Positions 3,611-35,714 of a stretch of DNA of 35,914 nucleotides are shown piece by piece. The notes below the pieces were generated by a model, which did no database searches, was not told the origin of the DNA, and saw only the letters and a program-made list of their open reading frames with translations. Position 1 is the first letter of the stretch. Every line of letters starts with the position of its first letter. Origin of the DNA: Microcystaceae cyanobacterium (GTDB taxonomy: Bacteria; Cyanobacteriota; Cyanobacteriia; Cyanobacteriales; Microcystaceae); assembly GCA_041746575.1 (NCBI GenBank), contig JBGTGT010000052.1, positions 1 to 35,914 of the forward strand, written 5' to 3'. The position numbers and the translations under genes were made by a program.

Positions 3611-3740
3611 TGTAGAAGTCCCCACCCAAAGTTACTTTAGCTAAAAATTATAGATAACTTGAATAGGGATGAATCCAAGCAACCCAGCTCGGATCGGTGA
3701 AGCAGCGACACTGCCTGCGGTTAGTTGGGGAGGATGTCAC
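3611..3740 (+). mobile_element. Putative non-autonomous IS200/IS605-derived miniature element (PATE-like): fused left and right ends
   Basis: AGAAGTCCCC...GGGATGAAT resembles a left-end hairpin and overlaps GAATCC...GGGGAGGATGTCAC, which resembles cyanobacterial IS605 right ends. Internal stems include AAGTTA/TAACTT and GCAG/CTGC. No coding capacity. Confidence 0.5.
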
Positions 3741-5662
3741 CGAAGTAAATCTAAATCTATCACAAAATTCTTGCCATCATCATAGATTCGTTGTCTTGTA
3801 TTGCCCAATTGTTTTAAGTTATCCTGAAAATCAAAGGTGAGTCTTGCTTGAGCTTTACGCCAAGAGTCTTTTTTGGTGTTCACTCTTCCTTTCAGCAAAT
3901 TAAAGGGAAAGTTTGCTTCCTCAGCATAAGCGTAGGCGACATACCGAATAGATTGGGATTTTAGATAAGTTGCTAAGGCTTCACTTCCTTCAAAAAAAGG
4001 CATCCCGGGTGGTGGACTAAATTGCCCTGGATAATCTGCGAGAAAGATTTGATTTCTCTTAAAATCTAGCAAAAAAGGCTTACTCAATCGGGTTAAAATA
4101 GGAGCTTTTGGGGGAATGGCTTCTAACATTTGGGTGTATTGATTCGCCTCTTGCGCGGAAAAAAGATTGACTCCATTTAAGCCCGCCATACTACTCTTAA
4201 AATTACCAATAATGTATTTTTGGGGAGAGCCAAGATTCACCAGAAGCCAACTGCCGATCAAGAAAGCGATAATCGCCGACTGATAGCGAAACGGATTTTG
4301 GGATTTGATCTTTGCCAATACTAAAGTTATTAATATTATCAAAGTCGGCACAACAAAAGGAACTGAGTACCGGTAACTAATATCTCCTCCCGTCGCAATA
4401 GAGAGTAAAATTTTCCCCAATAAGGTACTAATAATAAGAGGGAGAATAGAACCTCGGCTGATAAGCTTTTGTCTTCTTTGCCCGATAACTAGAAGGCTGA
4501 GTAAGAAAATTCCTAAGAAATCAGGCTCAAAGAAAGTTGTTTTAGTGATTTTATAAAGGGTGGCTATTGTTAATTTGCCATAAGGAGCGATCGGCGTTCC
4601 ATAGACAGAACCATGGTATCCTTTTCCCAGTAAAGGATATAAAAAAGTTCCTGCTGACGAGTGCATTAGAAGCATCCAAGACCCCAGAAAAATGATAAAT
4701 AAGCCGATAAAACTCAAAATTTCATAAAGGGCTTTTTTCTCAAATCGAGTATCAATGAGGTGAAAAAAGTAGCTTAGGCTAAGTAAAATTAGGGTAGAAA
4801 TAATGAGGTTCGTTTTTAGGGCGCAAAGGGCGGCGGCAATTAAAGCAATTATACAAGCATTAACAAGAAAATGAGGAGAGTTTCTAAGTTGCTTAGAGTT
4901 GAGAAATCTAAACAGACTGAAAACCAAAATAATAGCCGTTGTAACAGCCGCTATATTAACATTTTTTATATTAATAAGCAAAAATAAAAAAAGAATAGAA
5001 ATAATGGCTTTTGCAGGCGTTTTCTTTTCTATACAGAAGCTTAAAATAAGGATAATAACCCCTAACAAACCAACGCCAGAATCAATGATTTTCAAATTAA
5101 CTTCAGACAGCACACTCAGGACGAAAGTATCTAAAAAGGACTGTCCTCCTAGGGAATAGTTTCTTCTCGCACCAAACGGATCTGAACTGATAGAACCCGT
5201 TTGCAACATTTGCTGAGGGAAAACGAAATACGCATGATAATCATCGTGGGGATTAAAAGTGTTATTAGAAATACTTCCAGCATATCGTAATAAGATGAGC
5301 AAGCTAACTATAATGGTAGCGATTAAAAGTACCCTATCTTTTCGGCAATGGTTAATATATTGAGAAAGAGACGTTATCCTTAAATCTCTCGCTTTATAAA
5401 TGTCAATCAATCCGTAAGCAAAACCTATCCCCAAATAGATTAAAATGACTTCTTTGGAGACGGTTGCTGTCCCATTTAACACACCTCCTACAAAAACGCT
5501 AAATGCGATCCCCCAAGCCATTTTTTGTCCCCAGTCAACAGGCTGTTTCGGTAAGAGAAAGCGATTGAGAATTCCCCCCCAACCGATTAAAGATAAGAGA
5601 ATAGCGATTCCCCATATAAAGGCAAAAAAGTAGGAAGTAATAGATAGGATTTCGTTGGGCAT
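3737..5662 (-). CDS. Polytopic membrane protein, putative GT-C-fold glycosyltransferase
   Basis: 641 aa with many hydrophobic segments, an acidic pair in an early loop (FNPHDDYHAYF) and a C-terminal soluble domain. The ORF is secure; the function is inferred. Confidence 0.6.
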   Translation of the reverse strand: MPNEILSITSYFFAFIWGIAILLSLIGWGGILNRFLLPKQPVDWGQKMAWGIAFSVFVGGVLNGTATVSKEVILIYLGIGFAYGLIDIYKARDLRITSLSQYINHCRKDRVLLIATIIVSLLILLRYAGSISNNTFNPHDDYHAYFVFPQQMLQTGSISSDPFGARRNYSLGGQSFLDTFVLSVLSEVNLKIIDSGVGLLGVIILILSFCIEKKTPAKAIISILFLFLLINIKNVNIAAVTTAIILVFSLFRFLNSKQLRNSPHFLVNACIIALIAAALCALKTNLIISTLILLSLSYFFHLIDTRFEKKALYEILSFIGLFIIFLGSWMLLMHSSAGTFLYPLLGKGYHGSVYGTPIAPYGKLTIATLYKITKTTFFEPDFLGIFLLSLLVIGQRRQKLISRGSILPLIISTLLGKILLSIATGGDISYRYSVPFVVPTLIILITLVLAKIKSQNPFRYQSAIIAFLIGSWLLVNLGSPQKYIIGNFKSSMAGLNGVNLFSAQEANQYTQMLEAIPPKAPILTRLSKPFLLDFKRNQIFLADYPGQFSPPPGMPFFEGSEALATYLKSQSIRYVAYAYAEEANFPFNLLKGRVNTKKDSWRKAQARLTFDFQDNLKQLGNTRQRIYDDGKNFVIDLDLLR

Positions 5663-5787
5663 ATATTATGCTCTTTAGTTGTTTAAATTTAATTTTGTAA
5701 AAATCTTTTTTCTAAACAAAGGAATGGCATTAATTTAGCACAATCTCTTGGACTTGTCTAGTCTAACGAATACGAGTTTGAGTTCTT

Positions 5788-7590
5788 TTATTTTTCTAAA
5801 TTGTCAAAGGAGGTTTTTAAAATGCAATTGGACTCAATCACAAAAGAAACATCATTTTCAAAAACAGTACATTTTTCTTGAGCAGTTAACAAAACAGGAT
5901 TCATTCCTTTTTCTAATTTTTTTTCAATAGATTGTAATTGTGCCTTAAATGGTGTAAGCCAATCCCCAGCATATTTCTTTTTTCTAAAAGATTGGGTAAA
6001 ATAGTCAGACTGAAAAGCAGATTTTTCTAATAAGAAATAATCAACCCCATATTTTTTAATGAAATCTTTAACTTCAACCGAATTAGAACTGTATTGTGCC
6101 TTAATTAAATCCAGTGTACGCTGGCGAAAAACATTATAGTACCCCAGTTCGTAGGGATGCGCAAATTCACGAGCCACTAAGACTGAGCGTCTGGTAAAAC
6201 TCGGTATTGCTGAGGCTTCTATTGCTAAGGAAGCAATCATTATGTCTTTAGGTTGTTGCTCAAAAAATTGGTAGAGTCGCAGGTTGTTACCTTTGACGTA
6301 GTTATGCGTTAATTTTAAAAAATGACTCGGAGAAATTATAATAATGAATGCTAACGTAACCCCAAAAAATAAAAGAAATAATCTCTGCCAAAAACGAGAA
6401 GTATAATTCTTTAGTCTTTGGTTAGACAAAGAGGATAACTGTCTTAAAAGGGCATCTAATAAAATAACTAAAACAAGGGCTGTGGCAAACCGACTTGCGT
6501 ATTGCAATCCCGATCCATAACGATTAGGCAAATAAAGCTTAAATAGAGTCAGGTGAGCTAAGACAAAAAGCCCCAATGATACGATGATTAATTGCAAAAT
6601 AATCGTTGTTTTGCGATGAAGGAATTTAATTAAAGGAAAATAAGAAGAATAGCAAATGAGTATCGGCAGTAAAAGTCCTAGATATAATATTTGGGGCTCA
6701 AAAACTCTTTGCAGTTGGAGTCCACTCCGAGGAGATTCAAGGAAATAGAAGGAGAGATTTTTAAAGAAAAATTCTACTCTTCCTCCTTTCTGAAACTCTC
6801 TCATTGCTAATGCTTGAACTTTAGTAACAATGGGATCGTATTGAGATGGAATGAGGGCATAGTATAAAACAATTATAATAATTAATGCTAAACCTGATAG
6901 ACATAGCAAAAGTTTGCTTTTATCTAAAGTAAAACGACGAGGAATTCCCTTTTTCCACAAAAATAATTGTAAGAAGAGAATTCCCGCTAAAGGTAATAAT
7001 AAGATTTGATAGAATCCTCCTAGTAAGGCAATCATTCCTAAAAAGAGCCAGCGAGAATTTCGGAGAAAATAGTATAAGGTTGCCAAAAAAAATAAAGGAC
7101 CAAATGCTCTCGGGGTAGCAGTAATTAAGGTATCATAGTTCCACAGTAACTGGTTCAAAAAAACCGATGAGAAAAACCCAACTAAGGGGACAGGGAGCAT
7201 CTCGAAAGCCAGTAAAAAGCCATAAGCAGTTGTGAGTAACCCTAAAATGGGAGGAATGATTTTACCAACGGTAATTGCATCAATTCCTAATAAAGCAAAT
7301 AAACGATACAAAGTCAGATAACCATAGGGTTCGTTACTGATATAATAATTTGCCAGAAAATCGTTAGGAAATAGGTCTGGGTCTATAAATTTGAGCAACC
7401 AAGTGATATGAATACGAGCATCATCTTGTATAGAATAATCATATCTATAAGCCACTATTAAAGCCATGATACCGAAGAGGGCCGCATAAATTAAACTAAG
7501 ACTTAACCAGAATAATGTTCTCGGCCGAGTGATTTTGTCAGTAGGGGCAGTTAACCAAGATGAAAAATTAGACGAAAAAAAAGTTAGCAT
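5788..7590 (-). CDS. Polytopic membrane protein, putative GT-C-fold glycosyltransferase
   Basis: 600 aa with a DD motif right after TM1 (YSIQDDARIH), a TPRAF motif, more than 10 hydrophobic segments and a C-terminal domain ending FIKKYGVDYFLL. Confidence 0.6.
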   Translation of the reverse strand: MLTFFSSNFSSWLTAPTDKITRPRTLFWLSLSLIYAALFGIMALIVAYRYDYSIQDDARIHITWLLKFIDPDLFPNDFLANYYISNEPYGYLTLYRLFALLGIDAITVGKIIPPILGLLTTAYGFLLAFEMLPVPLVGFFSSVFLNQLLWNYDTLITATPRAFGPLFFLATLYYFLRNSRWLFLGMIALLGGFYQILLLPLAGILFLQLFLWKKGIPRRFTLDKSKLLLCLSGLALIIIIVLYYALIPSQYDPIVTKVQALAMREFQKGGRVEFFFKNLSFYFLESPRSGLQLQRVFEPQILYLGLLLPILICYSSYFPLIKFLHRKTTIILQLIIVSLGLFVLAHLTLFKLYLPNRYGSGLQYASRFATALVLVILLDALLRQLSSLSNQRLKNYTSRFWQRLFLLFFGVTLAFIIIISPSHFLKLTHNYVKGNNLRLYQFFEQQPKDIMIASLAIEASAIPSFTRRSVLVAREFAHPYELGYYNVFRQRTLDLIKAQYSSNSVEVKDFIKKYGVDYFLLEKSAFQSDYFTQSFRKKKYAGDWLTPFKAQLQSIEKKLEKGMNPVLLTAQEKCTVFENDVSFVIESNCILKTSFDNLEK

Positions 7591-11389: not shown

Positions 11390-13309
11390 CTAAAGGGGGG
11401 TTTCAGAATCGGCATAAAAGATGAATTTGAGATAGCCCTCATCGAGATTTTTGCTATTACGCTCTGCGGCAAACGTCCCACACGTGCCAATGATTCCCTC
11501 GTGATGGATAGGGTTTTGTCGAACAACCCAAAGCAGTTCACCATCCTCTAGGTTAATTTTAGAAGTGAGGGTGATAGGGGCGGAGAGGTCTGATAAAGTT
11601 TCGAGCAAAGGGGTTGCACCATTTTGTCTGCCATATCTTTGTTCATAACGATTAAGCATCCCTTTAAAATCACTGAGGCGTACCTTCGGCACATTGGTTT
11701 GAGCGATCGCTTTATCGGGGACAATTTTCAGGGAAGAACCAGCAGTATTACGAAAATAAACGGCTTCAGTTCCCGCTGGACAAGTGATTTTAGCAAAATT
11801 GGGCGGATAGCTTAAGGCTTTAGTGATAATTGTGCCACCAATGGTTAAAAAGACCAGCGCGCCACCGACGAACCAAAGGAGTATCGGGGATTCCTTCACC
11901 ACTGGCAGTTGTTGCAATTTTCGCCATTCCATCTTACGCACCAGTGCAGTAAACCCTAACGCCGGAAGAACCGCAATAAAGGGAACGGTTGCCATATAAG
12001 GACGCATTCCCGCATCCCAAGGAGGAACAAATGGCACAGATAGCAAAATCCCCAAAGTTGCCGCTAATAGCATTGAGCCAATCGGGGTTAGACGTTGACG
12101 ATAAAGACTAAAAAGACCCATCAAACTTAAGATTTGGAGTCCGATGTTAAGCTTAGCACTGTTGTCTTCAGCCGTTGCCACAAAAGCAAAGACAAAATCA
12201 TCCCAGACAAACATCTTCCACGCTCGCCAGCATCCCTGTACCAAACTGAAGGGATTTTTGCGTAGAATCTCAAAGATAATTTGATAGATGCGTTGCGCCT
12301 TGTCTTGATCACTTAGCTCAAAGACTTCTGGGTGTTGCTTATAAATCGTTAGCCAATTGCCATTGACTAAGAGTCCATAGAGAGAGTAAGAGAAGTTAGA
12401 AAATGAAGTGACATCTGGAGGAGAAGTGAGCTTAAAAATTAATGAATTCAACGCAAATCCTAGAAAAACTAAGCTAAATCCCCCTAAAATAAAGCGAACA
12501 GAAAACCGAGCCGTTCCCCGAAACTGCCAAGCTCCCCAAATAATGAGGGCAGGCAAGATAAAAAATGTCCCCGCACGGGTATTGAGGGCAAGCGTCAATA
12601 AGAAAATACCGAACAAACAGGAATTAATTTGATATTTAGCCGCACCTCGCCAGATAAAGGCTAATCCTAATGCCCCTAGCGCAATGCCTAAACTTTCCGT
12701 TGAAGCAGTACCAAGATAAACCCGATAATACATAAAAGAGATCAGCAAAACGATCACGGCGGCGGCAGTGCCATGACTGCGTTGAACTTCACGAGCGAGC
12801 AAGAAACAAGCGATCGCGGTGATCAATACCAATAAAGCTAGGGTTAACTGCCAATTTTGCTGGGTAAGTTTGAGTAAAGTGGCTAAAACTCCATGCGCTA
12901 ACGGTCGCCAAGCGGCAATATCCCAAAACTGTCCGCCTTCCAAGAAATTCAGCGCACTGCTGTAATAACCGGCGGTATCTGTGAGGGTTAGCAGTCCAGA
13001 TAGGACAAAAGCACTTAGATTCAATCCACTGCGCCAAATCCCCGATAATTGCACCGCAAAAAGAGCCAGTGTTGCCGCAAAACTGGTGAGGATTCCCCGC
13101 CATCCTGACGGCAGATAGGCAAAGTAGAGAAAAATAAAACTGCCTAAGAAAAAAAGAATCGCATCCTCTGACAAGACAATTTGGCTAATTTTGCCGGGGA
13201 CACCAATAATCAAAATGGCGGCATAAAGCAGTAGACCAACCGCTATAATTCCGAGCGAATACAACCACTGACGAGCGGAAAAAGGGAGAACGGGTTCTTT
13301 CATTTCCAT
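11390..13309 (-). CDS. Polytopic membrane protein, putative GT-C-fold glycosyltransferase
   Basis: 639 aa with loop motif LTDTAGYY...WRPL, STESLG and LNTRAG (D..Y, R-P and TE motifs seen in PMT_2/GT-C-like proteins) and a C-terminal soluble domain. Confidence 0.6.
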   Translation of the reverse strand: MEMKEPVLPFSARQWLYSLGIIAVGLLLYAAILIIGVPGKISQIVLSEDAILFFLGSFIFLYFAYLPSGWRGILTSFAATLALFAVQLSGIWRSGLNLSAFVLSGLLTLTDTAGYYSSALNFLEGGQFWDIAAWRPLAHGVLATLLKLTQQNWQLTLALLVLITAIACFLLAREVQRSHGTAAAVIVLLISFMYYRVYLGTASTESLGIALGALGLAFIWRGAAKYQINSCLFGIFLLTLALNTRAGTFFILPALIIWGAWQFRGTARFSVRFILGGFSLVFLGFALNSLIFKLTSPPDVTSFSNFSYSLYGLLVNGNWLTIYKQHPEVFELSDQDKAQRIYQIIFEILRKNPFSLVQGCWRAWKMFVWDDFVFAFVATAEDNSAKLNIGLQILSLMGLFSLYRQRLTPIGSMLLAATLGILLSVPFVPPWDAGMRPYMATVPFIAVLPALGFTALVRKMEWRKLQQLPVVKESPILLWFVGGALVFLTIGGTIITKALSYPPNFAKITCPAGTEAVYFRNTAGSSLKIVPDKAIAQTNVPKVRLSDFKGMLNRYEQRYGRQNGATPLLETLSDLSAPITLTSKINLEDGELLWVVRQNPIHHEGIIGTCGTFAAERNSKNLDEGYLKFIFYADSETPL

Positions 13310-15062: not shown

Positions 15063-15899
15063 TTACCGTTTTTGCCAAGAAGAACCCCCGTAATAAACAC
15101 CGATAGCAAGTAATCCTAAAAATAATAATCCCATCATTCCGGCTAAAGGATTATGATCAATTCCAGTAATCCACGGATGAACGATATTAGGATAACTCAC
15201 TAATTTGCCCACGTTAATAATATAGTATCCCCAGACTAAGCCCGCATGAAGTCCAATATTCATTCCTAATTGATTCCCCCATTGTCGCTTAGATATTACT
15301 AAAATAATTCCTAATAAGACTAAAGCCGGAAATTGAGGAAATGTTCGCTTGATTTCGTCTATAGGTTTTAAAAAATGAAGGGTTGCAAAAATAATTGCAT
15401 TTAACCAAAGGCTCGTTTTCAAGGAATAATCTTTTTCTAGTTCGATTAATAGCCAACCGCGAAAAAATAGCTCTTCTGCTAAAGCAATTAATGAGGCACT
15501 TAACCACCCTTCAATAATAATTTTTAATAGAAAAAAAGAAGAAGATTTTAAATAAATCCAGCCTAAACTTCCTTCAACAATAAATAAAATTAAACTAAAA
15601 AGATAACCAATGCTAAGTCCTGTTAAATAATTAATACCTGTTTTTCTTGTCCAAGTCAAACCATAATACCCTAACCATTGAGGAACTTGATACACCCATT
15701 TATTCCATCCTTTTAACAGGAAGATAAATGCAAGGTATAATAATCCCATTGTTAAAATAGTCACTAAATTTGGATTATCGGAAATGCTTAAATAAAGGGG
15801 AATGGCAAACGGTAGCCAAATCACCATCAAACAAAGTAAAAAAAGAGGAATTCTAATAAAAACGGGATAAGTAGCAATGAGCGGTAAGTTTTTTAACAT
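15063..15899 (-). CDS. CPBP (Abi/CAAX protease-like) intramembrane metalloprotease
   Basis: EELFFRG, FATLH and GLHAG motifs. Confidence 0.92.
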   Translation of the reverse strand: MLKNLPLIATYPVFIRIPLFLLCLMVIWLPFAIPLYLSISDNPNLVTILTMGLLYLAFIFLLKGWNKWVYQVPQWLGYYGLTWTRKTGINYLTGLSIGYLFSLILFIVEGSLGWIYLKSSSFFLLKIIIEGWLSASLIALAEELFFRGWLLIELEKDYSLKTSLWLNAIIFATLHFLKPIDEIKRTFPQFPALVLLGIILVISKRQWGNQLGMNIGLHAGLVWGYYIINVGKLVSYPNIVHPWITGIDHNPLAGMMGLLFLGLLAIGVYYGGSSWQKR

Positions 15900-15968
15900 T
15901 TTTAATTTAAGACTTTATTGATGTTATATAATAAAAAATAATTTAAAAAATGAAATTAGTAACATTTT

Positions 15969-18080
15969 ATGTTCTTGTTTGACGACTATCAAGGAGAAAA
16001 AGTTATAAAATATGCTGACTTGTTTTGTGGTATCGGGGGATTTCGTATTGCCGCTAATCAAGTCTTCCAAGAAAATTTAATTCAGCATAAATGTGTTTTT
16101 TCATCGGATATAGATCCTTACGCTCAAAAAACATATCAAGCAAATTTTCAAGAAACACCTCAAGGTGACATCACACAGATTATAGCAGACGAGATTCCTG
16201 ATCATAATCTCTTATTTGCGGGTTTCCCATGCCAACCTTTTAGTATCTGTGGTGATTTAAAGGGATTTGAAGATACTCGTGGTACATTATTTTTTGAAAT
16301 TGCTCGAATTTTGTCTAAGAAGCATCCTTATGCTTTTATTTTAGAAAATGTTAAACAATTGGTGGGACATCAAGAAGGAAAAACGCTCAAGATAATTATT
16401 AGCACTCTAGAAGATTTGGGTTACTCTGTTTACTATAAAGTATTAAATGCTTTAGATTTTGGTTTACCACAGAAAAGAGAAAGAATCTTTATTATCGGAT
16501 GTTTAGATCCGCTTTCTTTTAAATGGGAACAATATTATGCTCCTTTGAAACCTCTGGGTCAAATATTAGAAAAAAATGTTTCACTTTCTTATTACGCTTC
16601 AGATAAAATCCAAAAAAATCGGCTCGAAAAATACGCAGGAAAGCCTTATAATGAACCGACAATTTGGCATGAAAATAAAGCAGGACATATCAGTGCCTAT
16701 CCCTATTCTTGTGCGATGAGAGCAGGTGCATCTTATAATTATTTATTAGTTAATGGACAAAGAAGATTAACCGAACGAGAAATGTTACGTCTTCAAGGAT
16801 TTCCCGATTCTTTTAAGTTTGTTGGTTCTTATACTACTACTCGAAAATTAGTGGGTAATAGTGTCGCTATTCCTTGCGTGTTATATGTTTTGCGCTGTTT
16901 ACTAAAATCCGCCTGTAATTTTAAGAATCATTTTTCACTAACACCTAATTCTAGTAAGATAGATCGTAATTATGTACAACTGTCACTTTTTAATAAAACT
17001 AATATGGATCTCCAAGAAGCTAAAACAAGACTCGACTTAATTATGAAAAAATCTCGGACTCGTTTTTATAAACCTATTCAAATTGCTGAGACTCTCTACC
17101 ATTCGAGAGTTGAAGGAAGTATTAATATTTTAGATATAAAAACTTATAGAACATCTTCAATACAATGGAGAGATCAGATTACTACTAATTTTTATGGGCA
17201 TCATTCTACATCTTCTAGTAGATATCAAGATGACATTTGGAATAATCATGCTATGCCACCGCATATCCTTAATATTTTAGACCAAGAAAATAAACAAAAC
17301 TTAGGTCTAGTAGAAACCTATATTTATAGTAAATTTATTGAAAGGCAAGGTGTGATTGCTGCCGTAATTGAAAAAATTAAAGAATCTCGTAATTTACCTA
17401 AAGATTTTTATCTTAAAGATTTATTATCTTTATTCAGAAAGCAATCTGAAATTAAAAGAAATATTGATAAGTGCTATGAAATTATCACTTATAGCTTATT
17501 TGAAACAATTATTCGCAGTCTTAAAGTTCAAATAACAGTCAAAGTGCCTCAAGACAATTATAAGTTATTAGAAGAATTTCAGGATTTAACTAAAGTCTTA
17601 TTAAACGTTGGTACAACTCAATTAGAGTGGACTGAGCTAGCACATATTTATAGAGTTGGTGTTACAAATACAGCTGATAGAGGTTTAGATATGTGGTCAA
17701 ATTTTGGCCCCGCTATTCAAGTTAAGCATCTCACTCTTAAGATCAATGATGCAGAACATATTGTCGACCAAGTTGAAAGTGATCATATTGTAATTGTCTG
17801 TCGAGATGCAGATGCTAAAATTATCGAGGCCATTATGAAACAGATTGGATGGGGACAAAGAGTAAGAGGAATTGTTACCGAAACACAACTAGAAAAATGG
17901 TACAATAATTGTCTAAGAGGTCAATTTACTGAAACCCTATCACCCCTTTTATTCGACCTATTGATTCAAAGTTTTGAAAATGAATTCCCCGAAGCAACTG
18001 ATCAAGCAACGCTTATAGAAAAATTTTGTCAAAGTCGAGGTTATTCTACTATAAATCTTCCTGAGTTTTGGAAATCATAA
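15969..18080 (+). CDS. Fused C5-cytosine DNA methyltransferase + HaeII-family restriction endonuclease (predicted RGCGCY)
   Basis: aa 1-~315 carry DLFCGIGG, GFPCQPFS, ENV, QKRERI, RLQGFP and GNSV, with a TRD (WHENKAG...YSCAMRAGASYNYLLV) recalled as M.HaeII/M.NgoI-like. From Met346 (ATG 17004) the sequence has KKSR..FYKPIQIAE, STSSSRYQD and ADRGLDMWSNFGPAIQVKH, recalled as HaeII-like. There is no stop between the halves. Confidence 0.85.
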   Translation: MFLFDDYQGEKVIKYADLFCGIGGFRIAANQVFQENLIQHKCVFSSDIDPYAQKTYQANFQETPQGDITQIIADEIPDHNLLFAGFPCQPFSICGDLKGFEDTRGTLFFEIARILSKKHPYAFILENVKQLVGHQEGKTLKIIISTLEDLGYSVYYKVLNALDFGLPQKRERIFIIGCLDPLSFKWEQYYAPLKPLGQILEKNVSLSYYASDKIQKNRLEKYAGKPYNEPTIWHENKAGHISAYPYSCAMRAGASYNYLLVNGQRRLTEREMLRLQGFPDSFKFVGSYTTTRKLVGNSVAIPCVLYVLRCLLKSACNFKNHFSLTPNSSKIDRNYVQLSLFNKTNMDLQEAKTRLDLIMKKSRTRFYKPIQIAETLYHSRVEGSINILDIKTYRTSSIQWRDQITTNFYGHHSTSSSRYQDDIWNNHAMPPHILNILDQENKQNLGLVETYIYSKFIERQGVIAAVIEKIKESRNLPKDFYLKDLLSLFRKQSEIKRNIDKCYEIITYSLFETIIRSLKVQITVKVPQDNYKLLEEFQDLTKVLLNVGTTQLEWTELAHIYRVGVTNTADRGLDMWSNFGPAIQVKHLTLKINDAEHIVDQVESDHIVIVCRDADAKIIEAIMKQIGWGQRVRGIVTETQLEKWYNNCLRGQFTETLSPLLFDLLIQSFENEFPEATDQATLIEKFCQSRGYSTINLPEFWKS

Positions 18081-18122
18081 GATTTATTTTTATAGATTAT
18101 TAGCCTAAAAATATATCGCATT

Positions 18123-19199
18123 CTATGCCAAATAATCCATTACTGCTGCTGCAATCTCTTGATTGCCGTTTTTAGATAAAGCAGTATTTAAACGAGGAGG
18201 ATTTAAGGGTTGTCTTAGAAAATCCCAATTTCCCTTAAAAAAGACCTCTGGGGTAATAATTTGGTGATGACTATGGTCTTGTAATCCCTTCAATAATAAA
18301 GGCGTTTCTGGAAAATCATCCCGCGTCAACGAAATGAGGGGGATATCTAAACGCATTGCTTCCGCGAAGGTACTAAATCCTGGTTTTGAGATAATTCTTC
18401 CTACTAAAGGCATAAAATCAACGGGACGATAACAAGAACGAGAAATTTTGCGAAGATTGGGTAAATTAGGAGTATCTTGGTCAAATGTAATAAACTGCCA
18501 ATCGGGAAACTGTTCTAAATGATGATACGGAATTGCGTGTAAACCCAATCCTCCAAAGGTTAATAAGACGGTTTTTTGAACATCTGCCGTTAAATTAAAT
18601 TCTTCTTGGAGACCAGAAACACTGTAGCAAGGATTTCCTCCCGTTAACCCTGCATTGCTAATATTCGAAAAGGCAGACATTTTTTCCGACATCGGCAGAC
18701 GAAATAAGCGATCGCATTGGTGATAACCTTCTTGTATCCATTGCACAATCTCTTGAAAATCTTCTCCCCAAGCTTGATAAATAAAATCCCAGCCAAAATT
18801 ACCGATCATCCAACAAGGAATCTTTGCTTTTCGAGCAATAACGGCTACTAAAGCGGGAATATCCCCCAAAACCAAATTGACTTCATTGGTGCGGATAAAA
18901 TCCACCTCTGCATTCACAATTCCCTCTTGTTGAGCATAAATATGCCGCATTTTCGCGCTTGTTGTTGCCTTATCCATGGTAATGCTATCGGATTGAATGA
19001 CGCCCACATCAAACGCACGAGGACGATGAATAAAATCCCCTATAATGTAGGATTCTAATAACCAACGAGGAGCAGTGGTCACCAGAATCAGTAAAATATC
19101 TGGACAATGTTGCTGAATCACCGAGGCAACGGAAGCTAAACGGACAGCATGACCAAAACCATGGCCGGTAATGGCAAGATAAAGGGTAGGTCGAGACAT
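18123..19199 (-). CDS. GT-B-fold glycosyltransferase-like protein (resembles the N-terminal domain of plant L-arabinokinase)
   Basis: ITGHGFGHA, DVGVIQSDS, NFGWDFIY, LTFGG and ISKPGFSTFAEA. Start placed at MSRPTLY. Confidence 0.8.
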   Translation of the reverse strand: MSRPTLYLAITGHGFGHAVRLASVASVIQQHCPDILLILVTTAPRWLLESYIIGDFIHRPRAFDVGVIQSDSITMDKATTSAKMRHIYAQQEGIVNAEVDFIRTNEVNLVLGDIPALVAVIARKAKIPCWMIGNFGWDFIYQAWGEDFQEIVQWIQEGYHQCDRLFRLPMSEKMSAFSNISNAGLTGGNPCYSVSGLQEEFNLTADVQKTVLLTFGGLGLHAIPYHHLEQFPDWQFITFDQDTPNLPNLRKISRSCYRPVDFMPLVGRIISKPGFSTFAEAMRLDIPLISLTRDDFPETPLLLKGLQDHSHHQIITPEVFFKGNWDFLRQPLNPPRLNTALSKNGNQEIAAAVMDYLA

Positions 19200-22557: not shown

Positions 22558-23229
22558 TTAGGGGGTTAAAGGAATATCTTTGATCGTTAATTGTCGTTTT
22601 TGTTGAGGATAATCAGTCAGTTTCAAGGTAATCGTCTTTTTTTCTGCAACCAAGTTCATGGGGATTCGGATTACCCCTTCAAAAGCTCTACGGTTAGCAG
22701 GGAGCATTTCAGGCAAACCCTCAACGATCACCCCTATGTCTTGCCCTTCATCATCTTTCACTTCTAAAAAACTATACAAAAATCTGACGGCTTCTGTCCC
22801 ATCGTTGGTCAAATTAACCAATAATACCTGTTCATCGTCCGCTTGCTTAATCTCTAGTAATTTGAGGGTAACGTCTTGATCTGTCGTTGCTAAGGGAAGC
22901 GTCTGTTTAACAGGAGTTTTTTCGTCTTTTTTCTCGCTATTTTCAGCTTTTTGAGCGACTTTATCCTTTTTTTCTGTTTTATTATAGTGATAAATCTGAT
23001 TGTAAACTTGGGTTAAAATGGTTTGTTCTTTTATCGGTTTGAATGTTTGCGGTTTTTTATAAGTTTTCTGCTTATTGGTCAGTTTACGAGTAGGGTTATC
23101 TTCAGGCTGGCTTACCCCTTTTAAGGCGGCTTCTCCCATGCGATAGCTAATATAACCACTGGCAGCCCCAGCCCCTAATATAAAAAAGAGTAAGATGCTA
23201 GAGACGGTCAATAGAGACTTGAGTTTCAT
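22558..23229 (-). CDS. Hypothetical membrane-anchored protein
   Basis: N-terminal TM helix, charged linker and beta-rich C-domain (VRFLYSFLEV). Lies 8 bp upstream of the CNNM gene, so probably co-transcribed. Start placed at MKLKSLL. Confidence 0.75.
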   Translation of the reverse strand: MKLKSLLTVSSILLFFILGAGAASGYISYRMGEAALKGVSQPEDNPTRKLTNKQKTYKKPQTFKPIKEQTILTQVYNQIYHYNKTEKKDKVAQKAENSEKKDEKTPVKQTLPLATTDQDVTLKLLEIKQADDEQVLLVNLTNDGTEAVRFLYSFLEVKDDEGQDIGVIVEGLPEMLPANRRAFEGVIRIPMNLVAEKKTITLKLTDYPQQKRQLTIKDIPLTP

Positions 23230-23352
23230 TGGGTTAAATTTAAACACAATTTTGCGATTATTATACCCTAGTTTTTGTATCTCAATAACCCGTAACCCGT
23301 CAGCCGTAAAAAACCTGCGTTATAAACAATAAATTTAGTAAAAAAATAATCT

Positions 23353-27186: not shown

Positions 27187-28163
27187 ATGTTAAAATTAAA
27201 TCAGTTCGTCGGATACGCTTTATTGATCGGGCTAGTCAGCTGCACTTCTTCCCCCAAATCCACAGTAGATAACCGCAATAAACCTCTTGTGGTGGCGACA
27301 ACCAGCGTTTTATGTGATTTAACAAAGCAAATTGCTCAAGAGTCCATTGATTTGCAATGTCTAGTCGATGCAGGGGTTGATCCTCATGTTTATCAACCTA
27401 CACCTGAAGATCGAAAAGCGATTGATGAGGCGCAACTAATTCTTTATGGGGGTTATAATTTTGATGCCAATTTAGTCAAATTAATCGAAGCGACGGGAAA
27501 TTCTGTCCTAAAAGTGGCTGTTCACGAAATAGCTGTGCCTGATCCTCTAAAAGGGGGTTCAGACGAGATCATAGTCATGAAGAGGAAGCAACCACCTCTG
27601 AAACGGCACCTGATCCCCATGTGTGGCATAATCCGAATCATGGTATCGCTATGGTCAATGTGATTTCCCAAGAACTGACTCAATTACAACCAGAAAAGGC
27701 GCAACAATACCAAGAACGGGCTAATTCAATTAATACCGAATTAACCCAAATTGATCAGTGGATTACAACGCAAATTGTCACGATTCCCCCAGAAAAGCGC
27801 AAATTAGTCACCACCCATGATGCTCTCGGTTACTATGTCAACGCCTACGATCTTGAGTTTGAAGGAGCTTTAGGGGGATTTAGCACAGAAGAGTCACCTA
27901 CTGCTGCACGGGTCAGTGAATTAGTCAAAGAAATCAGAAAAACCGAAGTTCCCACCATTTTTGCGGAAACATCCGTAAATCCCAAGCTTATCGAGATAGT
28001 CGCCAAAGAAGCCCAAGTCACTGTTTCCGAGCGGGAATTATATGCAGATGGGTTAGGAAAAAAGGGAACAGACGGAGATTCTTACCAAAAAATGTTAATT
28101 GCCAACACCCAGACGATTGTTACAGAATTAGGGGGACATTACACCTTTTTTTCGGCAAAATAG
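27187..28163 (+). pseudogene. znuA: Zn/Mn ABC substrate-binding lipoprotein, split by a 1-nt frameshift near 27566
   Basis: Lipobox LVSC and DPHVY are in the first frame; DHSHEEE...DPHVW, THDALGY and YADGLG are in the -1 frame. Adding one base at GAC GA^GAT CAT restores GSDEDHSHEEE. This may be a sequencing error. Confidence 0.8.
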
Positions 28164-33826: not shown

Positions 33827-34750
33827 ACGTGAGTTCGACGAAAATTTATAGAGGAAAGGAAAGCACCAGCTTTATGCTAGAAGCAGCGTTCACTGAGGTC
33901 TGGTGCTATGGAGCTAAAATCTCGCCTCGATCTTACCGAGGTATTTTGTGATGTAGATGACTTCTATCAAGGATTTGAACAGCATTGTGGTTCCATCCCT
34001 CAATTGGCAGCATCAATTGGAGAAAAAAGGTGTCGTTCTCGTCTGAGTGTAAGTGAAGTCATGACCATTGTAATCGCTTTTCATGGGTCAGGTTATCGGA
34101 CTTTCAAAGAATTTTACACTTTACAAGTTCTTCCCCATTGGGAAAAAGCGTTTCCTAACCTAGTTAGTTATAATCGATTCGTGGAACTCATGCCTTGGTC
34201 GCTGATGTTACTCTGTTGTTTTTGGCAGACTCGCCAAGGAGAAATCACTGGAATTAGCTTCATTGATTCGACTCCAATAGAAGTATGTCATCCAGCACGC
34301 AGCAGTTCACACAGAGTTTTTGAAGGCTTAGTTGGATGGGGTAAAAATTCTGTTGGATGGCATTATGGCTTTAAACTTCATTTAATTATAAATGAGCGAG
34401 GAGAATTATTAGCTTTTAAGCTCACTCCAGGCAATACAGATGACCGTAAACCTGTACCTAAGTTAACACAAGATTTGATTGGCAAATTATTGGGAGACCG
34501 AGGATATATTTCTCAAGAACTCTTTGAAAAGCTCTATGAACAAGGACTTCAATTAATTACTCGTCATAAAAAGAAGATAAAACAAAAGTTAGTGAAACTT
34601 ATTGATAAAATTTTACTTCGTAAGCGTTCTTTAATTGAAACGGTTAACGACCAACTCAAAAATATCTCCCAAATCGAACATTCGAGACATCGTAGTATTT
34701 GGAACTTTTTTGTTAATCTCTTTGGGGGACTGATTGCTTATACTTATTTA
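33827..34750 (+). mobile_element. IS982-family element 1, interrupted near its 3' end
   Basis: Left end ACGTGAGTTCGACG at 33827; no matching right end in the window. Confidence 0.85.
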
Positions 34751-34756
34751 ACCTGA
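33908..34756 (+). pseudogene. IS982 transposase, C-terminally truncated
   Basis: FCDVDDF, FIDSTP, GFKLHL, GDRGY, IETVNDQLKN and EHSRHRS. It ends AYTYLT*, with the stop supplied by the next IS and without the KKPSL tail seen in the neighbouring transposase. Confidence 0.85.
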
Positions 34757-35714
34757 GTTCGGGATAAGAAAAAGGACAGGTAATAAACTGAAAATAACAA
34801 CTTTCTTCAGCTAACCTGTCCTATGTTGAGTTTAGACGCTTTGTTTTGTCATGTAGATGATTTCTGCTCCTGTTTTGAAGCTCAATGGAGAAAAAAATTG
34901 TTGAATCATGGAGCAATCAAACGTTTTAGAGCTAAAAATCTCTGTTTAAGCGAAATCATGACAATTCTAATCGCTTTTCATCAGAATCACTCCCGTAATT
35001 TCCAGCATTTCTATCTCAATCATGTAAAACAACAATGGCACTTGGCTTTTCCTGGACTTCCAAGTTATCAGCGATTTGTTGAATGGATACCCTCGACCCT
35101 GATTCCTTTGTGTGTCTATCTCAAACACTGTTTTGGGCATTGTACAGGTATTGGTTTTGTCGATTCAACTAGCCTAAAAGTCTGTCATAATCGTCGGATT
35201 GGTCGTCATAAGGTCTTTGATGGTTTAGCACAGAGGGGGAAAACTTCTGTAGATTGGTTTTTTGGCTTTAAACTTCATTTGGTGGTCAATGAGTTGGGTC
35301 AAATCTTAAATGTTACTCTTACTCCTGGCAATATCGATGACCGTCGCCCTGTTCCCAAGCTCCTTCAAGGTCTTTTTGGCAAAATTTTTGCTGACCGGGG
35401 TTATGTCTGCCAAAAACTGGCCAATCAACTTCTTGAAGAATTGAAGATTCAATTCTTTGCCAAACCACGCCGTAATATGAAGAATAAGTTAATGCGTCTT
35501 CATGACAAGCTTTTATCCCGTCAACGCTCTATTATCGAGACCCTTAATGACCAACTCAAGAACATTTCCCAGATTGAACATTCGAGACATCGATCGCCTG
35601 TTAATTTTTGCGTTAATGTTCTATGCGGATTGATTGCTTATTGTCATCAGGCAAAGAAGCCTAGCCTTCATCTCGACTGGCTTTTACCTCAATCTGCTTA
35701 ACCCGAACTCAGGT
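34751..35714 (+). mobile_element. IS982-family element 2, complete (964 bp)
   Basis: Terminal inverted repeats ACCTGAGTTCGGGATAAG and CTTAACCCGAACTCAGGT (17/18 match), flanked by TA on both sides. Confidence 0.93.
34823..35701 (+). CDS. IS982 transposase (intact, 292 aa)
   Basis: FCHVDDF, FVDSTS, ADRGY, IETLNDQLKN and KKPSL. Confidence 0.95.
   Translation: MLSLDALFCHVDDFCSCFEAQWRKKLLNHGAIKRFRAKNLCLSEIMTILIAFHQNHSRNFQHFYLNHVKQQWHLAFPGLPSYQRFVEWIPSTLIPLCVYLKHCFGHCTGIGFVDSTSLKVCHNRRIGRHKVFDGLAQRGKTSVDWFFGFKLHLVVNELGQILNVTLTPGNIDDRRPVPKLLQGLFGKIFADRGYVCQKLANQLLEELKIQFFAKPRRNMKNKLMRLHDKLLSRQRSIIETLNDQLKNISQIEHSRHRSPVNFCVNVLCGLIAYCHQAKKPSLHLDWLLPQSA

Follow-up and report, generated by a model that had tools for sequence, protein, structure and literature searches.

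A single-frame C5 methyltransferase and HaeII-type endonuclease in a Microcystaceae genome: a candidate read-through restriction-modification system

How does a restriction-modification system work when its two enzymes, a methylase and a nuclease that most related systems encode in separate genes, share one open frame? The question is raised by positions 15969-18080 of contig JBGTGT010000052.1 (assembly GCA_041746575.1, a Microcystaceae cyanobacterium), whose full 35,914 nucleotides are called the window here. At this locus a C5-cytosine methyltransferase (methylase) is followed in frame by an endonuclease of the HaeII family. We hold it moderately probable, judging from the sequence, that the gene is a functional read-through fusion of the HaeII/NgoAI type which probably also yields free nuclease.

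The fused frame and its known relatives

The frame runs uninterrupted along the forward strand for 703 codons plus a stop, and the C5 motifs and D...QxK segment stand intact where the initial annotation had placed them: F19-x-G21, P87-C88-Q89, E126-N127-V128, Q168-x-R170-x-R172 and G296-N297-S298-V299 in the methylase half, then Met346 (the ATG at 17004) and DRGLDMWSNFGPAIQVKH at residues 570-587. The profile search proposed there recovers both families in full, with PF00145 on residues 14-309 (Pfam, E 7e-84; TIGR00675 is also matched) and PF09554, RE_HaeII, on residues 351-692 over all 338/338 model positions (E 6e-129). PADLOC places a MTase_II on residues 10-317 and a REase_II on residues 346-693. 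The model of the methylase half resembles the M.HhaI structure (E 2e-23), and AlphaFold folds the two halves separately, with pLDDT below 50 across the 322-345 linker and a pTM of 0.47. The join is also supported by assembly. In three sequencing runs (X1-X3) single contigs cover 15600-18400 with 0 differing letters and 0 gaps, and the fourth of the four runs covers the region in pieces only; these metagenome assemblies come from a single study, from which the window itself may derive, and count as contigs rather than raw reads or independent occurrences. The stop or indel that might have been expected in the linker (16900-17010) is absent from the contigs of all three runs, and their identity across the fusion excludes an assembly slip. 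Domains and models support the reading first given, of a genuine C5 fusion with the methylase in front and two separate specificity modules, unlike the typical Type IIC or IIG enzyme. Its parts are as follows.

15969..18080, + strand: fused methylase-nuclease frame (open frame, Pfam, PADLOC, contigs)
15969..16919, + strand: C5 cytosine methyltransferase, residues 1-317, with FCGIG, PCQ, ENV, QKRER and GNSV (PF00145, TIGR00675, M.HhaI-like model)
16554..16853, + strand: methylase target-recognition region, about residues 196-295, WHEN...PYSCAMRAGASYNYL (alignment with the pair L154)
16920..17003, + strand: linker, residues 318-345, likely the former methylase tail plus four codons, predicted to be disordered (pLDDT, tails of split methylases)
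16977..16991, + strand: QLSLF, residues 337-341, a motif like those that bind the sliding clamp (conservation, docking model with the genome's own DnaN)
17004..17006, + strand: internal ATG (Met346), the nuclease start codon in split systems (Met retention, weakest RNA folding among seven internal ATGs)
17004..18080, + strand: HaeII-family restriction endonuclease, 358 amino acids (PF09554 1-338/338, family-conserved residues)
17676..17729, + strand: putative nuclease centre D570-R-G-L-D574...Q584-V-K586-H587 (conservation in 256 stand-alone nucleases)

The same two proteins in the same order, a C5 methylase and a PF09554 nuclease, make up the Type IIP systems of the HaeII/NgoAI type. In the Neisseria gonorrhoeae pair L154, 54% identical to the window in the methylase and 42% in the nuclease, the methylase ends in a QLDLL tail and the genes are separate with an ATGA overlap, whereas the window has one frame. 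By comparison of sequences the gene would work like a HaeII/NgoAI Type IIP system; it shares with Type IIC the single frame, but not the usual anatomy of Type IIC and IIG enzymes. Eco57I, MmeI, BpuSI, HaeIV and BtgZI likewise unite nuclease and methylase in one polypeptide. Natural enzymes of these types use amino-methylases, mostly place the nuclease first, rely on one shared specificity module and cut outside their site, in contrast to the window, where the methylase is of the C5 type, has a target region of its own and is joined to a full Type IIP nuclease. Most Type IIC enzymes are nuclease-first and of the gamma class, with BtgZI as a methylase-first exception in whose nuclease motif Q replaces E (PMC4081073); both traits recur in the window.

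Twelve proven Type IIC enzymes, all forming N6-methyladenine, are tabulated in PMC3039593 (Table 2). The sole single-chain Type II enzyme forming 5-methylcytosine (m5C) in the literature searched (REBASE not covered) is engineered: in RM.Eco29kI an m5C methylase and a palindrome-cutting Type IIP nuclease, encoded head to tail, were fused by removal of a stop, and the authors predicted natural derivatives (Mokrishcheva 2011, PMC3039593). This enzyme demonstrates that fusion can leave an m5C Type IIP pair functional. RM.Eco29kI is nuclease first, with a GIY-YIG nuclease, a two-glycine hinge and the internal Met removed, while the window gene is natural, methylase first, with a nuclease assigned to PD-(D/E)XK, a 28-residue linker and both tail motif and Met kept. 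A natural parallel in mode of origin is offered by fusions of C protein and nuclease such as NsoJS138I, where read-through of adjacent co-oriented Type IIP genes gave a two-function chain (Liang and Blumenthal 2013, PMC3850674); there, the partner is a regulator instead of a methylase and function was tested, whereas the window is known from sequence. No description of a natural m5C Type IIP fusion was found in the literature searched, which excluded most subscription papers and supplements as well as REBASE, and passages of PMC12707154, PMC3850674 and PMC6158711 do not show one. Such fusions may already be catalogued, for example in REBASE.

Origin and recurrence of the join

How did two genes become one? 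The junction of the window reads QLSLF-NKTN-M. In the split system L001 the methylase ends in QLSLF-stop, followed after 2 nt by the nuclease ATG, and other split methylases have the tails QISLFK (L056), QLNLF (L092) and, in L154, the one given above. Since the split tails end just before the nuclease ATG, the linker corresponds to the former tail of the methylase together with the former spacer, and the fusion likely arose by loss of the stop codon of the upstream methylase gene. With one additional T in the run of T at 16987-16991, a stop would follow directly on QLSLF. Two loci of one genus show the two states side by side, with QTTLFD-TGA-ATT-ATG in frame in L044 versus the read-through QTTLFD-GAA-ATT-ATG in L028. 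L044 (genome G413) also carries an insertion sequence of about 1.1 kb (4135-5270) in the start of its HaeII-type nuclease gene.

The join was at first regarded as unusual, a view weakened by the finding that it is not rare. Among the best 120 of 7975 matches (7999 candidates were scored), from which fusion counts and alignments were drawn, 57 proteins including the query carry PF00145 and PF09554 fused with the methylase first, 35 of them full length by a strict cut, so that the proposed search for recurrence gave at least 56 further cases. One group is about 60% identical to the query and bears cyanobacterial names where named; a second, at about 45%, likewise where named, bears names of gut anaerobes. 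Large fused clusters hold 431, 108, 35 and 17 members, many of the same length. Split systems are nevertheless the majority, with 38 of the 45 loci whose two halves were read as DNA being split and 7 fused (window included). A sample of the phylum (401 genomes) has PF09554 in 19, and 3 of 11 full-length matches lie in frames of 705-724 codons. On the Bacillota side the family appeared in 2/401 and 1/4 genomes, none fused, and a metagenome scan dominated by unrelated C5 methylases gave both halves in 4/80 loci, all split. HaeII-type systems were also seen on 13 viral contigs (L158-L170), one of them fused (L161). Matches of 668-690 amino acids without PF09554 were considered as further methylase-nuclease fusions and rejected, the five scanned being double methylases. 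Proteins of the P0060, P0097 and P0063 types join the same methylase family to a glycosyltransferase domain, Vsr and a second methylase.

The fused forms do not constitute one clade, and the join is therefore recurrent. A tree of 46 hand-picked rows (22 fused, 21 split and checked on DNA, 3 split by gene call; long-branch rows omitted; LG+G4, quick mode) requires at least 6 state changes and rejects a single fused clade (p-AU 1.8e-42). A larger nuclease tree of 310 rows, 54 of them fused (FastTree), requires at least 23, a count that is inflated since stand-alone labels taken from gene calls can err: P0127, labelled stand-alone, is the C-terminal part of the L048 fused frame. Neither count can say whether the changes were gains or losses. 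The constant spacing at the junction in the cyanobacterial group suggests an old fusion, followed by some reversions. Rather than having been invented once, the join probably occurs again and again and is tolerated, although in the cyanobacterial clade it has lasted for long. As one instance of a common architecture the gene is less surprising than was first held; it belongs to a broad class that seems to be uncharacterised. The gene would be the natural counterpart of a fusion only engineered in the literature searched, and would show the route, stop loss between head-to-tail genes, taken many times. Annotation can hide such fusions by calling only one half.

Target site, products and state of the nuclease

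The recognition site of HaeII is RGCGCY. The target-recognition segment of the window methylase is near-identical to that of L154. N. gonorrhoeae carries NgoAI, specific for RGCGCY and forming m5C, in 25/25 strains (PMC6789123), and although the L154 record is unannotated there, we infer that this pair is NgoAI. The window system is predicted on this basis to methylate and cut RGCGCY, which would make the site a barrier to transforming such cyanobacteria. An exact count agrees with the two sites reported earlier in the window (1471 and 2517), and the proposed genome-wide count gives 153 observed vs 1190 expected, an eightfold depletion (observed/expected 0.13) that ranks 7-9 of 2080 six-mer classes. 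The ratio AGCGCT/AGCGCA is at most 0.11 in 6/6 fusion-bearing genomes and in 5/11 with an intact split pair (44 genomes, with kin not independent). Such depletion is in keeping with restriction over a long time, without singling out this gene. In the assembly (G000, 99.8% complete) no further gene with this target region was found, so that protection would have to come from the fused methylase.

We propose that, once the upstream methylase gene had lost its stop codon, a one-frame HaeII/NgoAI-type system resulted. The methylase half, made only as part of the long product, would protect the RGCGCY sites of the host, and the nuclease half would dimerise and cut RGCGCY in incoming DNA wherever it is unmethylated. 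A second start of translation at ATG 17004 is probable, in which case the cell would hold both fused and free nuclease subunits, and QLSLF likely serves as a tether to the replication clamp, for prompt methylation of new DNA. Natural fusions of this kind are predicted to act in anti-phage defence.

Is the nuclease also made on its own? A free nuclease from ATG 17004 had been raised as a possibility in the initial annotation, and it gains from the retention of the internal Met in 54/55 junctions, against a Met frequency of 1.3% (among the matches listed; the 2/57 fused rows without an intact junction are left out). Among the 27 cyanobacterial-type fusions the Met column shows 1 change vs a mean of 9 per linker column. 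From this retention of the nuclease's own Met, a second start at 17004 probably yields free nuclease. RNA folding at this ATG is the weakest among the gene's seven internal ATGs (percentile 0.09). In the gut-type group 18/25 junctions translate as purine-rich dipeptides resembling a Shine-Dalgarno sequence, vs a background of 9.5%, and in L161, the sole gut-type fused junction read as DNA, GAGGGGG stands 10 nt ahead of the ATG.

Alternatively, and possible though doubtful, the gene may encode a true single-chain Type IIC enzyme of which only the 703-amino-acid product is made. The methylase would then act at once as a monomer and cutting would await the dimerisation of enough chains, a delay by which the enzyme would set its own timing when it reaches a new host, as argued in theory for Type IIC enzymes (PMC12707154). 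The age and stability of the fusion in the cyanobacterial-type clade are in keeping with this alternative (27 proteins with one motif-to-Met spacing; a tree of the 31-row set about 5 changes per column long), as are the lack of any Shine-Dalgarno-like signal in the junctions of that clade (0/27) and the Ile that P0005, the one fused member without Met, has at this position. It is harder to reconcile with the keeping of Met across independent fusions and with the ribosome-binding signal kept by the gut-type group. The earlier remark that no obvious Shine-Dalgarno sequence precedes the ATG is true, and split cyanobacterial systems often start their nuclease without one too.

The consensus for binding of the sliding clamp is QL[SD]LF, and QLSLF at 337-341 fits it within a disordered segment (pLDDT below 50). 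Against an otherwise variable linker, the motif is conserved in the cyanobacterial-type fusions (Q 24/27, L 27/27, F 25/27), its columns changing 2, 0 and 2 times on the tree. A clamp-like tail was counted in 13/38 split HaeII-type methylases and in 4/48 general C5 methylase tails, the former with a looser pattern, so that the two are not strictly comparable. Modelled with the DnaN of its own genome, the segment 316-349 scored 0.68 vs 0.06 for the best control, passing a mark that 51/78 solved pairs and 2/108 mismatched pairs reach; the runs share at least 62% of contacts, the partner pLDDT is at least 46 and the interface comprises residues 333-341. QLSLF is thus predicted to dock in DnaN, and the pass may reflect likeness to solved complexes of clamp and peptide. 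No description of a clamp motif in restriction methylases was found in the literature searched.

Would the nuclease half be active in the proposed read-through fusion? Of 83 residues that at least 95% of 256 stand-alone nucleases share, it keeps 78, and D570, D574, Q584, K586 and H587, about 100% conserved in that set, are all present. The closest stand-alone relatives deviate equally often at the conserved columns (4-6). Nuclease-to-methylase divergence is no higher in fused pairs (35 systems, median 1.70/1.36/1.44) than in split ones (30 systems, 1.81/1.60/1.43). The RE_HaeII family is assigned to PD-(D/E)XK in PMC3424549 and left unassigned, as subtype P, in PMC2441816. Neither sequence comparison nor Foldseek at E 0.001 turned up a solved relative of the nuclease half. 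The models do not confirm the PD-(D/E)XK fold: the catalytic stretch has pLDDT below 50 and nucleases match only at Z 4.4-5.8; EcoT38I (Z 5.8, root-mean-square deviation 11.3, 247 aligned) is a lead only, as are the best hits of a wide structural search (Z at most 7.0), winged-helix domains of Cdc6/Orc on nuclease residues 1-116.

That the nuclease half is weak or dead, so that the gene serves as a methylase whose nuclease is a passenger and moves towards the orphan state seen in relatives, seems unlikely. Seven related genomes do have a close methylase with no nuclease beside it (L049-L055), nuclease halves are broken in L002, L044, L063 and a second, SacI-like fusion of this genome described below, and the window nuclease departs from its family at five conserved columns. 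The window nuclease, however, is of full length without stops, its putative catalytic residues are intact, fused nucleases show no relaxed divergence, and site avoidance is strong in every fusion-bearing genome. Least credible, to the point of being very improbable, is an assembly error in an organism with two genes: a single extra base would restore the stop and the support comes from contigs, but the three runs, assembled separately, are identical in every letter, the spacing of motif, four codons and Met recurs in 26 other proteins, and the fused clusters hold many members of identical length.

Several findings, besides the inflated tree count, weigh against a functional fusion that also makes free nuclease. 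The query protein (P0001) has five deviations at conserved nuclease columns, including A568T beside D570, while 148/256 stand-alone nucleases have none; L002 and L063, both fused relatives, have broken nuclease halves, and the second fusion of this genome is cut by an in-frame stop after codon 532. The cyanobacterial-type junctions offer no Shine-Dalgarno-like signal. D347, A351 and K352 are conserved as strongly as Met346, and the Met could be kept for structure instead of as a start. Weak folding was rejected as a general feature of the internal ATG, percentiles ranging over 0.05-0.91 in seven fused loci. GTGCAC, GGGCAC, GAGCAC, ATGCAT, TTCGAA and GAGCTC are depleted as much as RGCGCY, and AGCGCT/AGCGCA is 0.01-0.06 in four genomes (G401, G404, G218, G020) in which the query P0001 found no close homologue. 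RM.Eco29kI, of the opposite order, restricted phage 100-fold less than its two-gene form (PMC3039593).

Parallel fusions and genomic setting

The architecture is not confined to one nuclease family. Automatic Atlas clusters of 50-458 members pair PF00145 with the SacI, Eco47II, HinP1I, HpaII, HaeIII, BsuBI/PstI and MutH families, of the same type of architecture as the window but with different nucleases; two rows stand at >=0.90, the rest being leads only. A 706-amino-acid C5 methylase-HpaII fusion (L177:1611-3731, genome G411) has QLELF, five residues and an internal Met. A 728-amino-acid fusion in G401 and G150 has a SacI-like second half (score 0.98 to SacI-family clusters) and reads QLEIL, four residues, Met. 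Like the window, the HpaII (L177) and SacI-like (L172, L174, L175) fusions thus place a clamp-like motif 4-5 residues before the internal Met. The second fusion of the window's own genome (G000:C116, L172:2819-4417, on to about 5002) is SacI-like, with QLEIL, four residues and Met368; GAGCTC and other GDGCHC words are strongly depleted in this genome. A two-gene system, with an Eco47II-family nuclease upstream of a C5 methylase, lies beside an integrase-like frame at L173:2056-4099 (G000:C126).

It is tempting, though rather speculative, to see natural m5C read-through genes as an unrecognised Type II class whose junctions follow one grammar (clamp motif, 3-5 codons, nuclease Met) even where the nuclease families are unrelated, and in which a clamp-tethered chain and a free nuclease would be made and fusion would be selected rather than only tolerated. 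If so, methylation would be linked to the replication fork, and the balance between the two starts would set the strength of restriction. One 2.1-kb gene raises three ideas: a natural single-chain m5C Type IIP enzyme, nested in-frame starts that tune the balance of methylase to nuclease, and restriction methylases that ride the clamp.

Where did the gene come from? The initial annotation suggested lateral acquisition, from AT-richness and the absence of the highly iterated palindrome HIP1. Both traits are real, but the suggestion is only half supported. Gene GC is 32.4% and GC3 20.5% (lowest 1.6% and 0.6% of 1557 long frames), and relatives hold the system in other places with different neighbours; low GC and differing neighbours fit a mobile cassette. 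HIP1 is a cyanobacterial trait (PMC4390886), and the 1780 sites of the genome mark the host as a cyanobacterium. As a sign of transfer, its absence from the gene was rejected as uninformative, 82/198 frames of 600-800 amino acids in this genome lacking it as well. The methylase is 70% identical to a same-genus methylase, with flanking host genes at 66-71%, and the nearest relatives on the nuclease tree lie in the cyanobacterial group, which tells against recent arrival from a distant source; the lineage appears, from the deep RGCGCY depletion, to have been exposed for a long time. No empty insertion site was found: in each of the two same-genus genomes the flanking genes are on separate contigs and have other neighbours. 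Next to the fusion lie a CAAX-protease gene in divergent and a glycosyltransferase-like gene in convergent orientation, and no Vsr, controller or mobility gene was recognised among its neighbours. A promoter scan gave 14 sites vs 12.1 expected, nothing above chance.

In a same-genus genome (G402, 77% complete), a close methylase lies at L049:4019-5008 and no nuclease was found. This genome has 3776 AGCGCT sites vs 29 in G000 and 39 in G401, with about 570 AGCGCA, 17 GGCGCC and 1908 HIP1 sites, one of the four RGCGCY variants being extreme. Following the model of PMC4390886, AGCGCT here is a candidate for a further highly iterated palindrome, linked with an orphan methylase; other genomes with the orphan show no such extreme (ratios 0.04-2.2).

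Elsewhere in the window, frames of 641, 600, 639 and 229 amino acids with no Pfam match at E 0.001 (3737-7590, 11390-13309, 22558-23247) lie amid glycosyltransferase genes. A ZnuA-like binding protein at 27187-28163 is spread over two overlapping frames (158 and 180 amino acids; Pfam 1-83 and 101-262), likely through a frameshift, and two tandem DDE transposase genes (282 and 292 amino acids) occupy 33908-35701 at the contig end.

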